Part shown: positions 3,514 through 35,158 of the stretch, one piece after another
Position numbering within the stretch: position 1 is the stretch's first letter
How the letters are laid out: each line of letters starts with the position of its first letter
Origin: Anaerolineae bacterium
GTDB lineage: Bacteria > Chloroflexota > Anaerolineae > UBA1429
Direction: 5' to 3'
Assembly (NCBI GenBank): GCA_963675785.1
Contig: OY776562.1
Span: 992,001-1,056,000 of the forward strand
DNA: 64,000 nt
The notes under the pieces: model-generated
Databases searched by the model: none
Seen by the model: the letters and a program-made list of their open reading frames with translations, nothing else
What the model was told of the DNA's origin: nothing
Made by a program: the position numbers and the translations under genes

Positions 3514-5769
3514 GTGACCTTGCAGACAAGGACGATTGTGGCGAATCGTGCCGCACGATGGTGGTTTACGCCGCTTGTTGGCATGGTACTCGTTGCTCTT
3601 ATAGGAATTTTTGTTGGTTTTGTTCACGATGATGTTTCTATCGGTCTCTCATCCGATGAACTCGTTACGGCTCTCTCTGGCGGCATTGCCTGTGCGGTAC
3701 TTTTGGGCATCAACTGCTATAGCACACGTGCAAGTGCTCAAATCAATTCAAGATCCGATTCTACATCAACCGTGGCACCCCTTGGAGTTCCGTCTTTGTT
3801 GCTGTTTGGCGAGCGACTGACTTTTGAGTTGTCCGAGGCGATTGCCAATGAGAGTGTGGGCACATTCTACGGTCGGGCTGCCGAGATACTTGTACAAGTG
3901 TTTGAGGCAGATGCTGTGGCCTTGTATCGCAAGGATGAGAACGGCACCATTTCCCTCGTCACATCCGTTCCAGAATCCAGTGGATTTGCGCCGATCGTTG
4001 AGAATTGGCCTGGGAATGATTCCGAATCGCTTGATCTTTCCGCTTTGGGCCTGGCCGATAAGGGTTTGTGGATTTTTTTCGCGGACCATTGGCTGGCTGT
4101 GACGAAATTGCCTTGCGATCGTGGATGCAACGATTCTTTAGCCTATGTGCAAGCTCAACTTGATGCAGCATTCCGTTTTGCAGAGCAAGCAGCTTATTCT
4201 ATCGAAACAACCTCTGAAACGATTTCTCGCTACGTACGACAGTTTTTTAGCTTGACAGAGAACCCCATGTGCCTTGTTGGCCCCGATGGATTCAGTATCA
4301 AGTTGAGCAATCAGGCCTTCCAGAACAAGTATGTCATTGAATCCCCAACAGAAACCGGGGATTCTCTGTTTTTGGATAATACGAGTTGCCGAGACCATTT
4401 AGAGCATTTCTATCACCTCGCCTTGGGCAAGGATGGGAGAGTAACCGAGCAGCTAGAGTTGTTGTGTTGTGATGGTGTGAGACGTGTTACTCAGATAGAA
4501 GCATTGCGTATTGTAGGTGCTCGCGGGCAGATCAATGGACATGTGATTATGTTCTTTCTAGATCTATCAGAGAGGCAGAGCCTGGAGACGCGACTTGCAC
4601 GGGCGGCTCGTATGGAAGGCATTGGTCAACTCGCCGGAGGCGTAGCCCACGACTTTAACAATATTTTGACGGTCATCAACGGCTCTGCTGAGTTTGCCTT
4701 GGAGAACCTCGACGCAGGTATGGATGTTACCAGTGACTTGGAAGAGATACTCAAGGCCGGGAGGCGTGCTGCTACGCTCACTCGCCAGCTGCTTGCGTTT
4801 AGCCGCAAGCAAGCTATGGTCATCGAGTCCTTGAACTTTAACGACCTTGTTCGCGAAATCTCCAACATGCTTCAGCGGCTCATTCAGGAAGACATCGAGT
4901 TGCGGATGCAGCTGGCGCCTGATATTGGCCTAGTGCATGCCGACACCGGGCAGATGCAGCAAGTCTTGATGAATCTGGTGGTTAATGCTCGCGATGCCAT
5001 TGGCTCTTCGGGCATCATTACCATTGAAACCGCTAATGTCGTGATCGACCAGGCTTTTTGTGAGGCACATGCTGGCGCTGAGGCAGGCCCTGCGGTGCGT
5101 TTGAGCGTTCGCGATACGGGCTGTGGCATGTCCAAAGAAGTATTGGAACATATGTTTGAACCCTTTTTTACCACCAAGGGGCCAGAAAAAGGCACAGGGT
5201 TGGGACTTGCTTCTGTTTTTGGCATTGTCAAGCAGCTTGGTGGAAACATTTATGCCTCTAGTGTCGAAGGGGTGGGCACCTGTTTTGATGTCTATCTGCC
5301 ACGCGTTGTGCAGAATATTGGACCAAGCGTCGAGGGCATACAGGCAGAGCTTTTAGATGACCTGCGGGGCGCCAGGATCATCGTGGTGGAGGATCAACAG
5401 CAGGTCCGGGACTTGACTGTCCACATGTTGCGTTCCCTTGGCTATATCGCCATAGGCGCGGAGAGTGGTAATGCGGCTCTTGCCTTTCTTACTGCACCCA
5501 GCCGGGCGGGTACTATCGATTCTCCACATTGCCCTGTTGATCTGCTTATCACGGATGTGGTTATGCCAGGGATGGGCGGCGTAGAGCTCGTCGAGCAGGT
5601 ACAACAGATGTTTCCTTCTGTTGCTGTGATGTTCATGTCTGGCCATAGCAAAGAACTCGTCACACGCGAGATGGGTGAATCTTCCGATGTCGTCCTTTTG
5701 CGCAAACCCTTTACGTTGAACGATCTTCGCAAGTGCGTCCAGGTGTGCCTCAGAGCCAGAAAGAACTAA
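3514..5769 (+). CDS. hybrid sensor histidine kinase/response regulator (TM-GAF-PAS-HisKA-HATPase-REC)
   Basis: GGVAHDFNNIL H-box, NLVVNARDA N-box, FEPFFTTK..GTGLGL, receiver LITDVVMPG...KPF. Confidence 0.93.
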   Translation: MTLQTRTIVANRAARWWFTPLVGMVLVALIGIFVGFVHDDVSIGLSSDELVTALSGGIACAVLLGINCYSTRASAQINSRSDSTSTVAPLGVPSLLLFGERLTFELSEAIANESVGTFYGRAAEILVQVFEADAVALYRKDENGTISLVTSVPESSGFAPIVENWPGNDSESLDLSALGLADKGLWIFFADHWLAVTKLPCDRGCNDSLAYVQAQLDAAFRFAEQAAYSIETTSETISRYVRQFFSLTENPMCLVGPDGFSIKLSNQAFQNKYVIESPTETGDSLFLDNTSCRDHLEHFYHLALGKDGRVTEQLELLCCDGVRRVTQIEALRIVGARGQINGHVIMFFLDLSERQSLETRLARAARMEGIGQLAGGVAHDFNNILTVINGSAEFALENLDAGMDVTSDLEEILKAGRRAATLTRQLLAFSRKQAMVIESLNFNDLVREISNMLQRLIQEDIELRMQLAPDIGLVHADTGQMQQVLMNLVVNARDAIGSSGIITIETANVVIDQAFCEAHAGAEAGPAVRLSVRDTGCGMSKEVLEHMFEPFFTTKGPEKGTGLGLASVFGIVKQLGGNIYASSVEGVGTCFDVYLPRVVQNIGPSVEGIQAELLDDLRGARIIVVEDQQQVRDLTVHMLRSLGYIAIGAESGNAALAFLTAPSRAGTIDSPHCPVDLLITDVVMPGMGGVELVEQVQQMFPSVAVMFMSGHSKELVTREMGESSDVVLLRKPFTLNDLRKCVQVCLRARKN

Positions 5770-5845
5770 GGGCCAAGGCAAGCCAATTGCAGATGTTCTC
5801 ATACCTTTTTTCTTACAGAATCTTGAAAAGAGGCCCGGAATTTGC

Positions 5846-5874
5846 TTGACATAGATAGGGCCTTATGCTAACAT
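5846..5874 (+). promoter_or_regulatory. sigma70-type promoter for the candidate ncRNA
   Basis: TTGACA (5846-5851), 17-nt spacer ending in TGc, TAACAT (5869-5874); predicted +1 near G5881. Confidence 0.65.
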
Positions 5875-5880
5875 AATGTT

Positions 5881-6096
5881 GCAGGGTCCAGAGAGATTGA
5901 TGGAACTCGGACAACGACCTAGGGATCAATGAAGCGGAAGCGGGGACAGGTAAAACTGGAACCGTGAGCCAGAGGTAAATCCAGCGCAAACTGGTGGGAA
6001 ACTGGCAGGCGAAACCCGAATTCAAGGAATAAGGAATCGCAACCGTAGAAGGAATTTTAGGTGAGTGACGAGATAACAGGTCACTTTGGATCCTGC
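5881..6096 (+). ncRNA. candidate structured ncRNA (~216 nt), family unassigned
   Basis: No credible ORF. 5' GCAGGGTCCAGAG pairs with 3' CTTTGGATCCTGC (13 bp, 2 G-U). Internal hairpins with GNRA-like loops. Promoter directly upstream, hairpin downstream. Confidence 0.7.
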
Positions 6097-6106
6097 CCTT
6101 TTGTGC

Positions 6107-6139
6107 AAAAAAACGGGGCCGACGAAAGTCGGCCCCGTT
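6107..6139. terminator. intrinsic terminator between the convergent ncRNA and epimerase gene
   Basis: AACGGGGCCGAC-GAAA-GTCGGCCCCGTT with an A-tract on the left (strongest for the minus strand). Confidence 0.8.
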
Positions 6140-6149
6140 GTCGTTTACG

Positions 6150-7169
6150 CTATATTTTGTTGGTCAAATCGTGAATCGCAGTTTTTCGATCGCTGATGAA
6201 GCGTTCTGCCAGCAGGTCCATGCGTTGAGCAAGGGCTTTGTCTATGGCGCAGTGTTTGGATTGAGCATCATGCCAGGCAACGGATTGGCGGATGCCCTCT
6301 GCAAAGGGAATCCGCGACTCGAAATCAGGAACCAAACTGTGCAGTTTGCTCATGTCAAAGATAAGGCTGTAGGACTTTTCACCCAGGATACGCTCACCCC
6401 AGTCGGGGTAGATGGCATCAATGTAATCCGAGGGGATATGCAGTAGCTCAATACCACAGCCAGCGGCCTCAGCCAGAGTGGTGTAGACTTGATCCCAAGT
6501 GAGATACTCGTTTGACATAATGTGCACGGCTTCACCTATAGCATGTGCATTGCCTGCAAGCCCCATAAAGGCCGCCGCAAAGTCACTGTTGTGGGTTAGG
6601 GTTATCAATCCCAAACCATCGCCATGAGAAATGACCGGTTTACCCTCGCGGATGCGGTGCAGCACAGCACAGTTATGCCCACCGACGGCGGCCGGAATCC
6701 AAGTCTCGCCATAGGTATAGCCGGGGCGCACAACGGTGGTAGGTAAGCCGGCCTGAGTGTAGGTAGCCAGGCGCGCCTCGCAATCGGCTTTGTCCTGGGC
6801 GTAGGGCCAGACAGGGTTGCGCAGCGGTCTATCCTCGGTGACAAAAGGTGTGCTCCCCGGTCTTTCATAGGCAGCGACACTGCTGATAAAGATGTACTGA
6901 CTGGTGTGGCTCATAAAGGCGCTGGCCGCCATGTCGACGTCATTGGGTTTGTAAGCGCAAAAATCAGCCACCAAGTCATAGTTGTTATTGGCGGCGGAGG
7001 CGAGATCTGCGGCGCTAAAACGGTCCCCCAGGATTTCGTGGATGCGTGGATCGGGCGCTGTTTGCGATTTGCCGCGATGAAACACCGTGACATGGTGTCC
7101 AAGGTCGAGGGCACGGGCTACGCAGGCTGTGCTGATGTTGCCGGTGCCGCCAATGAACAAGATTCTCAC
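6150..7169 (-). CDS. NAD-dependent epimerase/dehydratase (extended SDR)
   Basis: ILFIGGTGNIS Rossmann motif, FISS, YAQDK (YxxxK). Confidence 0.9.
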   Translation of the reverse strand: MRILFIGGTGNISTACVARALDLGHHVTVFHRGKSQTAPDPRIHEILGDRFSAADLASAANNNYDLVADFCAYKPNDVDMAASAFMSHTSQYIFISSVAAYERPGSTPFVTEDRPLRNPVWPYAQDKADCEARLATYTQAGLPTTVVRPGYTYGETWIPAAVGGHNCAVLHRIREGKPVISHGDGLGLITLTHNSDFAAAFMGLAGNAHAIGEAVHIMSNEYLTWDQVYTTLAEAAGCGIELLHIPSDYIDAIYPDWGERILGEKSYSLIFDMSKLHSLVPDFESRIPFAEGIRQSVAWHDAQSKHCAIDKALAQRMDLLAERFISDRKTAIHDLTNKI

Positions 7170-14168: not shown

Positions 14169-14244
14169 GGCCCCATCGTCTAGTGGCCTAGGACACAGCC
14201 CTTTCAAGGCTGCGGCCGGGATTCGAATTCCCGTGGGGCTACCA
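14169..14244 (+). tRNA. tRNA-Glu (anticodon UUC)
   Basis: Acceptor GGCCCCA/TGGGGCT, D arm GTCTAGTGGCCTAGGAC, anticodon arm CAGCC-CTTTCAA-GGCTG, T-loop TTCGAAT, encoded CCA. Confidence 0.95.
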
Positions 14245-34925: not shown

Positions 34926-35002
34926 CACTGTGGTTGAATATGACAGTTGATTACAACAGAAAAGTATATGCGTCGCCTAATGCAAACAGCATTACCGTTC
35001 AA

Positions 35003-35115
35003 TGACGAACGACTGACTGTCTGCAGCGGGGGAACCAGAATTGGGGCGAATCGTTTTCGGAACGTAGGGGCTTTCCTCTTTCTTCCCGAGCCCGTCAGCT
35101 AACCTCGCCGGCGTA
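35003..35115 (+). promoter_or_regulatory. c-di-AMP riboswitch (ydaO/yuaA class)
   Basis: Hallmark blocks in order: GCGGGGGAACCA, TGGGGCGAAT, GTAGGG, CCCGAGCCCGTCAGCTAACCTCG..GGCG. Confidence 0.92.
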
Positions 35116-35117
35116 GA

Positions 35118-35158
35118 AAAGGACACCGCACGTATTTGTACGGGCGGTGGCCTTTTTT
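35118..35158 (+). terminator. riboswitch expression-platform terminator
   Basis: AAAGG.CACCGC...GCGGTG.CCTTTTTT directly after the aptamer. Confidence 0.8.

Follow-up and report, generated by a model that had tools for sequence, protein, structure and literature searches.

A separately transcribed structured RNA gene in an Anaerolineae genome belongs to an apparently undescribed RNA family with a conserved terminal rod

The DNA analysed here, referred to as the window, is a 64,000-nucleotide (nt) stretch of the genome of an Anaerolineae bacterium (Chloroflexota; contig OY776562.1, positions 992,001 to 1,056,000). Two of its genes, encoding a hybrid histidine kinase/response regulator (3514-5769, + strand) and a NAD-dependent epimerase (6150-7169, - strand), converge on a gap that holds, at 5881-6096 (+), a gene for an RNA of about 216 nt. 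Our results establish a genuine gene for a structured, separately transcribed RNA that belongs to an apparently undescribed family; it was the sole copy found in the window's genome by the covariance model and both sequence keys described below. A first-pass annotation, made from the sequence alone, had proposed the setting between convergent genes, a TTGACA-N17-TAACAT promoter and a transcription start at about G5881. All three were borne out: within 5600-6400 the sole promoter-like site is this one, its -10 element is of the extended type (TGC) and ends 6 nt before G5881, and the start is supported by the promoter geometry and by a purine at the first helix base in 57 of 57 homologues.

The + strand of the element folds with a minimum free energy (MFE) of -73.5 kcal/mol (z score -5.36), which none of 200 dinucleotide shuffles equalled, and the reverse strand of 5881-6096 reaches a z score of -3.06. 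The 13-base-pair (bp) helix that the first-pass annotation had drawn between 5881-5893 and 6084-6096 is present in this fold, as are its hairpins CGG..CAG-GUAAAA-CUG..CCG and CCAG-CGCAAA-CUGG, both of which are kept in relatives. A - strand open reading frame across the locus (5813-6025, 70 amino acids) gave no match in a Pfam search.

The RNA was compared with known classes using Rfam 15. A scan of the window at gathering scores found no family at the RNA locus, a permissive scan of 5750-6200 (E<=10) returned only weak small-RNA matches caused by a neighbouring hairpin at 6112-6139, and 18 homologous loci searched at E<=0.1 gave no match to the RNA. A divergent housekeeping RNA was ruled out, as the earlier reading had anticipated, because all four candidates are present at other sites of the genome: 6S RNA (RF00013) in canonical form at G000:C1:2011488-2011651 (68.9 bits), RNase P RNA (315.1 bits), transfer-messenger RNA (180.7 bits) and signal recognition particle RNA (72.1 bits).

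We then sought to learn how widely the RNA is distributed. A BLAST search with a 220-nt element against its own genome and 60 relatives found only the element itself, the best other match (E 0.012) consisting of short chance pieces. A covariance model built from the window's single sequence and its MFE structure, termed R1, matched five further genera of the taxonomic family over its full length (E 5.5e-12 to 3e-3), none of which BLAST had seen. These five relatives have in common a 5' block GAGAGRUUGAUG, a 3' block AGGUCACUU and a TTGACA-17-TGnTAnnAT promoter at an identical offset. A loose descriptor, GAGAGRTTGATG-gap-KYGGGR, matched 14 of the 42 genomes of the taxonomic family with no control match. 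Its matches in G017 (L040) and G003 (L047) were dropped as chance, having neither the promoter nor the GGUCA block, and so were its class-wide matches, which fell in 50 of 401 genomes, were mostly recurring coding-like strings and had control matches in 14.

The 5' 22-mer RCAGRRYCNNGAGAGRTTGATG was scanned exactly against 185,579 species, each represented by one genome, and matched 37 times, with about 35 matches expected by chance (a 35-bit pattern over 1.2e12 positions). The promoter accompanies 18 of them, 17 in entries titled Anaerolineae, Anaerolineales or Chloroflexota and one in a contig binned as WS1; in 16 of these 18 the helix closes with 11-13 of 13 pairs, and the remaining two are truncated at a contig end or very long. 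None of the other 19 matches, which come from unrelated lineages and one Caldilineaceae, has a promoter, and their helices form no more than 11 of 13 pairs. The contig binned as 'candidate division WS1' (L108) agrees exactly with a Chloroflexota contig (L100) in its RNA copy and in the flanks compared, which suggests mis-binning.

Within the taxonomic family, the 5' key with two mismatches allowed was found in 32 of 42 genomes, with five matches in the reversed control. All candidates with a promoter form 13 of 13 pairs except three very long copies, which close at 929, 944 and 947 nt, and candidates without a promoter form 10 at most. An independent 3' key, searched exactly, matched 25 of the 42 genomes and no control, adding G014, G005, G026, G063 and G064, each verified by 13/13 pairs and a promoter. 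When one mismatch was allowed, the 3' key gave eight reversed-control matches in 42 genomes, and single-mismatch matches were therefore trusted only if verified or recurrent within a genus; the one in G019 is unverified. Verified copies are present in 33 of the 42 genomes (one of them cut by a contig end), or 34 if G019 is counted.

The order comprises the same 42 genomes as the family, being a single family in GTDB. In a class-wide sample, the exact 3' key matched 11 of 21 genomes of the family and 2 of 379 others, where about three are expected by chance, and both matches outside the family failed verification. A metagenome scan yielded 80 matches in 79 contigs and 20 new distinct sequences: 28 matches have a promoter, 22 of which close and five of the other six are cut by a contig end; 51 have none, and the four of these that close at 12/13 or better are at chance level over the 1,200-nt range; one lies too near a contig end to be judged. 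Judged by these pattern scans, the RNA family appears confined to one Anaerolineae order. Homologues of the kind the first-pass annotation had envisaged exist, none found by BLAST but at least 64 distinct copies (57 tabulated and seven further verified ones) through R1 and the two sequence keys.

Promoters and U-tracts were compared among the 57 distinct copies, the seven further verified copies lying outside this comparison. The hexamers and spacer barely vary (Table 1), and the distance from the -10 element to the first base of the helix is 6 nt in 52 copies and 7 nt in five. In many copies (for example L086, L100, L105 and L117) a recurring A-rich stretch, AAAACCC, abuts TTGACA on its upstream side and resembles an UP element of strong promoters. 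The constancy of the promoter bears on whether the locus is instead a cis element, that is, the 3' untranslated region, leader or transcription insulator of a neighbouring gene, as its place in an intergenic gap with an adjoining terminator hairpin would allow. We regard this as extremely unlikely, since every one of the 57 copies has its own promoter and the flanking genes are variable, in either orientation, and convergent in the window. No conserved neighbour gene was seen across the 10 loci examined, except between close relatives.

Conserved sequence is limited to about 22 nt at each end of the RNA, and these ends form a rod. Its strands were anchored on the sequence blocks, with no gaps and no structure model. 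For 17 terminal pairs in 16 sequences, 265 of 272 cells are standard pairs, versus 30-49% when the strands are slid; in 57 sequences, 956 of 969 cells are paired (98.7%), of which 721 are Watson-Crick and 235 are G-U (24%), leaving 13 mismatches. Compensatory changes in the closing helix, by which the first-pass annotation had set store, are seen in the homologues: among 37 of them the Watson-Crick pair type switches at positions 1, 4, 5, 6, 7 and 9, position 9 being C-G in 18, U-A in 16 and A-U in three. Position 21 also covaries with its partner (U-A 23, C-G 2, G-C 2, U-G 3). Other features are nearly constant without being Watson-Crick, namely U17-G, U18-G and G11-U (33 of 37 each), and positions 19-20 are purine oppositions (Table 1). 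The window copy has the whole rod, with 13/13 and 4/4 pairs, the A-A mismatch and GA opposite CA. A kink-turn reading of the GAUG/CARA loop was rejected, the three-base bulge being absent and GAUU running straight into GA.

Across 43 members of the family, the median folding z score is -6.15 for the sense strand versus -3.15 for the antisense strand, and the sense strand folds better in 41 of 43. Together with the G-U content, this bias points to pairing at the RNA level on the + strand. It also bears on the idea of a miniature inverted-repeat mobile element, in which the strands of the closing helix would be terminal inverted repeats around a variable cargo. The occurrence of 1-5 copies per genome at unrelated sites and the range of lengths, 162-947 nt, would fit such an element. 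However, in DNA or on the opposite strand the 235 G-U cells among 969 would become A-C mismatches, each of the 57 copies has its promoter, fixed in geometry, outside the repeat, paralogues within one genome have strongly different interiors, and the short contigs from RNA libraries described below lie wholly within the RNA, so that a mobile element is very unlikely.

For the interior of the window copy, 35 members were aligned to R1. In this alignment 90.6% of cells are paired, versus 31-44% when slid, and 52 of 63 pairs changed on both sides; the alignment was fitted to the structure, so that the interior pairing leans towards that structure. Helix P2 occurs as C-G, U-A, A-U and G-C pairs among the homologues in the same model-fitted alignment. 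An independent fold made with MAFFT and RNAalifold for the eight-member L117 subfamily gave the same plan: its terminal rod extends over several helices, a further helix closes the junction, and counterparts of hairpins A, B and C are present. Of the 83 pairs in this fold, 24 are compensated. The elements of hairpins A and B were both recovered independently in subfamily alignment A7. Two other pairings proposed by the first-pass annotation did not hold up: the ATTGAT/ATCAAT hairpin has a full partner in 12 of 57 homologues, where about seven are expected by chance, and the exact GACCU of the GACCT/AGGTC pseudoknot occurs in four of 57. Both compete with the GAUU/GGUC helix (5895-5898 with 6079-6082), which is paired 4/4 in 54 of 57 homologues.

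Table 1. Features of the RNA gene and its immediate surroundings (window positions).
Feature	Position	Strand	Basis
-35 hexamer TTGACA	5846..5851	+	Identical hexamer and offset in 52/57 homologues; TTGACT in the remaining 5
Extended -10 element TGC-TAACAT	5866..5874	+	Homologues: spacer exactly 17 nt in 57/57, TGn in 55/57, TAnnnT in 57/57
Inferred transcription start, first base of closing helix, G5881	5881	+	6 nt past -10; geometry-based
P1 5' strand, 13-bp closing helix	5881..5893	+	Pairs with 6084-6096; every position paired in at least 33/37 homologues (gap-free block anchoring)
A14 of A-A mismatch, facing A6083	5894	+	A-A 33/37, G-A 3, A-G 1; standard pair 0/37
P1b 5' strand GAUU	5895..5898	+	Pairs with GGUC 6079-6082; tandem U-G wobbles each 33/37; 4/4 paired in 54/57
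Conserved GAUG: purine-purine loop (GA), then UG step	5899..5902	+	Positions 19 and 20 standard-paired in just 3 and 1 of 37
P2 5' strand CUCG	5906..5909	+	Pairs with CGAG 6069-6072; 87.4% of cells paired, 35 homologues, model-fitted alignment
Junction-closing helix 5' strand, partner 6043-6046	5934..5937	+	MFE fold; 86.4% paired (model-fitted, helix 7); equivalent in independent subfamily fold
Hairpin A: GCGG/CCGU around CAG-GUAAAA-CUG	5940..5965	+	Outer helix (5940-5943 with 5962-5965) 95.8% of cells paired; G-C, G-U, U-A and A-U types
Hairpin B: outer CCAG(A)/CUGG(C), purine-rich internal loop, inner CCAG-CGCAAA-CUGG	5968..6006	+	Outer helix (5968-5972 with 6002-6006) 95.4% paired, inner 80.8%
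Hairpin C, specific to window copy	6009..6040	+	MFE fold only; few homologues have letters there (helices 12 and 13)
P2 3' strand CGAG	6069..6072	+	MFE fold and model-fitted alignment
Conserved 3' block CA-GGUC-A: loop partners, P1b 3' strand, A of A-A mismatch	6077..6083	+	Homologue pairing; served as independent search key
P1 3' strand	6084..6096	+	Fold and homologue pairing; contigs from two studies end exactly at 6096 (weak hint)
U-tract UUUU directly 3' of closing helix	6099..6102	+	At least 4 U per 6-nt window within 10 nt of helix in 49/57 homologues
G+C-rich 12-bp hairpin	6112..6139	-	Terminator scan calls - strand only; T-run on that side

Possible traces of a transcript were found in sequencing libraries. 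Four runs from four studies contain part of a 601-nt stretch around the gene, three of them recorded as RNA and one ambiguous, and all four contigs are at least 99% identical to the window. Three contigs lie wholly inside the predicted RNA, with lengths of 201 nt (5896-6096), 190 nt (5908-6096) and 182 nt (5890-6071), two of their libraries being recorded as RNA and one being ambiguous; the fourth, 212 nt from an RNA library, matches 5901-6025 and then diverges. In all four libraries 5700-5889 and 6097-6300 are without cover, which was not counted as evidence. We take the contigs as a hint of an abundant transcript, and the fact that two of them, from different studies, stop at the last paired base as a weak hint that the RNA 3' end lies near 6096. 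The hairpin at 6112-6139, which has an A-run on one flank and a T-rich stretch on the other, is reached by no contig from these four libraries and probably lies outside the mature RNA; the terminator scan called it for the - strand and not for the + strand, which assigns it to the epimerase gene.

In contrast to the rod, the bodies of these RNAs vary widely. Copies are 162-947 nt long, with interiors of about 120-900 nt, and occur 1-5 times per genome. Among 39 sequences the interiors fall into 23 BLAST clusters. All interiors are purine-rich on the sense strand (54-66%) and they are rich in GNRA loops. Stop-free frames in the 808-947-nt copies are of low complexity, with no early start codon and no Pfam match, and are compositional.

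Several loci illustrate this variety. Long forms are genus-wide in g20 (806-809 nt; L154, L262, L256, L263) and g24 (929-947 nt; L114, L146, L165). Close or tandem paralogues on the same strand, each with its own promoter, occur in L132 (G020, 376 nt apart) and L147 (G034, 369 nt), and further ones at G006:C41:12182-12703 and G001:C137:1681-4854 (2.9 kb apart); the upstream copies in G020 and G034 have no U-tract. A metagenome contig (L193) carries two copies, at 279-300 and 6941-6962 (-), that share their first 30 bases and promoters; the helix of one closes at 283 nt, and the other, with 10/13 pairs at best within 1300 nt, may be disrupted or very long.

This variability bears on the link to the raiA motif RNA that the first-pass annotation had proposed. 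According to excerpts of the published description of that class (PMC10861870), its members fold into helices P1-P8 with two pseudoknots, have 51 highly conserved positions and are found in Bacillota and Actinomycetota, with few if any genes in Anaerolineae; its supplementary alignments might hold rare cases. In the same excerpts (PMC10861870), raiA RNAs are about 200 nt, independently transcribed and intricately folded, with function unresolved, and a diverged raiA RNA would share with our family its similar size, independent transcription and complex fold. The family conserves the terminal rod only, however, and differs further in its lengths, its 1-5 copies per genome and its single Anaerolineae order. 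The raiA model (RF03072) matched neither 5750-6200 at E<=10 nor the 18 homologous loci at E<=0.1, and its best score in the genome, 12.9 bits against a cut-off of 101.3, lies at a site other than the RNA locus. The hypervariable interiors stand against the 51 conserved raiA positions given in those excerpts (PMC10861870), and the pseudoknot proposed for the window copy is unconserved. On these model scores and the published description the family is set apart from raiA, so that a diverged raiA RNA is extremely improbable; the three raiA-like blocks pointed out in the first-pass annotation would speak for one. What stands of the earlier proposal overall is a free-standing structured RNA with its own promoter, outside Rfam 15; the raiA link, the AUUGAU hairpin and the pseudoknot are not supported.

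The interiors also contain repeated modules. Nine of 16 members, though not the window copy, carry GGAG-RWGAMA-CUCC, a hairpin with an A-rich AACGA stretch after it, and L112 carries it twice. L112 (which is also G013 and L140), 454 nt long, has its interior module duplicated, as two GGAGGAGAnACUCC hairpins about 188 nt apart, each with a CAACGAG stretch after it. Such a duplication would suit a sequestering decoy like CsrB or 6S RNA, which would titrate a global regulator through a varying number of binding sites in its interior; so would the RNA's own strong promoter, its variable size, its multiple paralogues and its many purine runs that contain GGA. We consider a decoy improbable. The genome has no CsrA gene (PF02599; the best match, 12.9 bits and E 0.41, is below the cut-off and lies in a 721-amino-acid frame), and the CsrB idea was ruled out on this ground. 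A canonical 6S RNA is encoded elsewhere, the fold is a rod with a multi-helix junction and no central bubble, and long-range covarying helices exceed what a string of hairpins would need.

Our findings suggest, with a probability of roughly 0.6, that the family consists of undescribed, independently transcribed, trans-acting structured RNAs in which the rod is a handle for a partner and the closing helix with its U-tract is a terminator. What the comparisons show is a self-contained transcription unit, in which a near-consensus promoter of the sigma-70 type should set the start at base 1 of the 13-bp closing helix, and a conserved terminal rod around a variable, structured body. The rod runs from the closing helix through the A-A mismatch, a 4-bp helix with the tandem U-G and a 2x2 purine loop to further helices. 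With the start on helix base 1 and a U-tract in 49 of 57 copies, the closing helix is probably an intrinsic terminator, the RNA's own. Both transcript ends would then be held in a duplex, which may protect them from exonucleases and make the RNA stable.

The non-Watson-Crick features of the rod are kept in every paralogue while ordinary pairs drift, which is the signature of a recognition site and argues for a handle for a shared partner. That partner, common to all paralogues, would most likely be a lineage-specific RNA-binding protein, and the RNAs would act as scaffolds of ribonucleoproteins, the variable bodies conferring functions specific to each paralogue. The window copy is a minimal one, consisting of the rod and a junction that bears three hairpins. 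This function is one that we infer from the conservation pattern.

An RNA-only function was also considered, as a ribozyme or self-assembling complex in which the rod serves folding, end protection or oligomerisation. The very strong folds throughout the family, lengths of up to 947 nt with purine-rich and GNRA-loop-rich interiors, and the lack of a candidate protein gene nearby would all agree with it, and excerpts of a published study (PMC12286853) describe RNA-only homo-oligomers of GOLLD, ROOL and OLE. A conserved core would be expected in that case, yet the rod alone is universal, and non-Watson-Crick features that hardly vary within an otherwise plain duplex are what one would sooner expect of a binding site; we judge an RNA-only function to be rather unlikely.

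Returning to trans-acting RNAs with a partner-binding handle, we tentatively extend this to a class of constant handle and variable body, possible although not the likelier outcome, in which a single lineage-specific partner reads the rod and the paralogues (162-947 nt, 1-5 per genome) differ in body. If true, the paralogues would form ribonucleoprotein particles, each with cargo or targets of its own, and the family would be a bacterial equivalent of Y-RNA-like or box C/D-like ones; the closing helix would double as the terminator, the RNA being made with both ends sealed.

Several points weigh against this interpretation and its scope. No partner protein was identified, and none is suggested by the neighbouring genes at the 10 loci examined. 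Eight of 57 copies have no clear U-tract and many loci have a separate downstream hairpin terminator, so that self-termination at the closing helix is probable at most. The contigs are assemblies from which strand, start and level are not readable, one of the four libraries may be DNA, DNA can occur in RNA libraries, and contig ends are unreliable. The interior of the window copy is a singleton among the BLAST clusters, the metagenome scan found no closer relative of it, and its inner helices therefore rest on the model-fitted alignment, in which helices 4-7 are weaker (70-86% paired). Neither key found a copy in eight of the 42 genomes (G061, G002, G035, G024, G009, G004, G007 and G025; 87-95% complete), and scans for exact patterns, the ground for restricting the family to one order, are blind to diverged forms.

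Comparison with known systems places the family more precisely. Y RNA has a conserved terminal stem that is a protein handle, a variable interior and sometimes several paralogues, and Y RNA and YrlA go with a Ro (TROVE) protein whose gene usually lies near by. The family resembles Y RNA and YrlA in its conserved stem of paired ends, variable interior and several paralogues per genome, and differs in having no TROVE/Ro gene in the genome, no Rfam match to Y RNA or YrlA and no evident tRNA-like module. The search for TROVE/Ro (PF05731) gave 0 matches at E<=1 in a genome that is 94.84% complete, with control genomes positive, and the Y RNA idea was ruled out for want of this gene. Box C/D RNAs are archaeal or eukaryotic, and their kink-turn requires a three-base bulge. 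In architecture, going by the box consensus, they would resemble the family in a terminal stem, a conserved purine-rich block close to the 5' end that faces a short conserved one close to the 3' end, tandem purine-purine oppositions and a variable interior, whereas the family has no three-base kink-turn bulge, a structured interior that is not a guide, and a bacterial host lineage.

6S RNA is abundant and stable, forms a rod with a central bubble and usually has one main copy per genome. The pairing of 5' and 3' ends into a long closing stem is shared with it; the canonical 6S elsewhere in the genome and the bubble-free fold set the RNA apart. CsrB and RsmZ likewise have their own promoter, variable length and repeated purine-rich motifs, and differ from the family in its long-range covarying helices and the absence of CsrA from the genome. 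OLE, GOLLD and ROOL are large, highly structured and purine-rich RNAs of unknown biochemical function, and the longest family members (806-947 nt) are in the same size class. Each of the three has a conserved body, whereas the family, which has no Rfam match, combines a conserved terminal handle with a variable body.

We rate the family as a new RNA class within a broad category, bacterial structured RNAs of unknown function, that is already well known. Large conserved classes of bacterial noncoding RNA are rarely found, and RNase P, 6S, OLE, raiA, GOLLD and ROOL each opened a line of biochemistry. Anaerolineae are abundant in digesters, sludge and sediments, and molecular study of them is scarce. 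The family is present in most genomes of an Anaerolineae order, has near-consensus promoters and appears in metatranscriptome assemblies, and its plan is unusual in joining a nearly invariant terminal rod to a body whose size varies almost tenfold. It is ready for direct tests, with predicted exact ends, at least 64 sequences, two search keys and a complete genome with a single minimal 216-nt copy. Families of this kind are missed completely by BLAST-level searches and found by a covariance model from a single sequence. A full-text literature search, with supplementary files outside its scope, found no description of the terminal-rod RNA family; one preprint naming Chloroflexota (10.64898/2026.10.21.760802) deals, in the excerpt available, with tandem-repeat arrays, a different element.

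Other RNA features were recorded alongside the gene. The window contains a tRNA gene at 14169-14241 (+; 59.1 bits) and a full-length c-di-AMP riboswitch (RF00379) at 34986-35128 (+), scoring 71.2 bits against a gathering score of 38. At one homologous locus (L139, in G021) a cobalamin riboswitch at 2438-2589 (+; 68.5 bits) lies about 700 nt downstream of the RNA copy and is unrelated to it.

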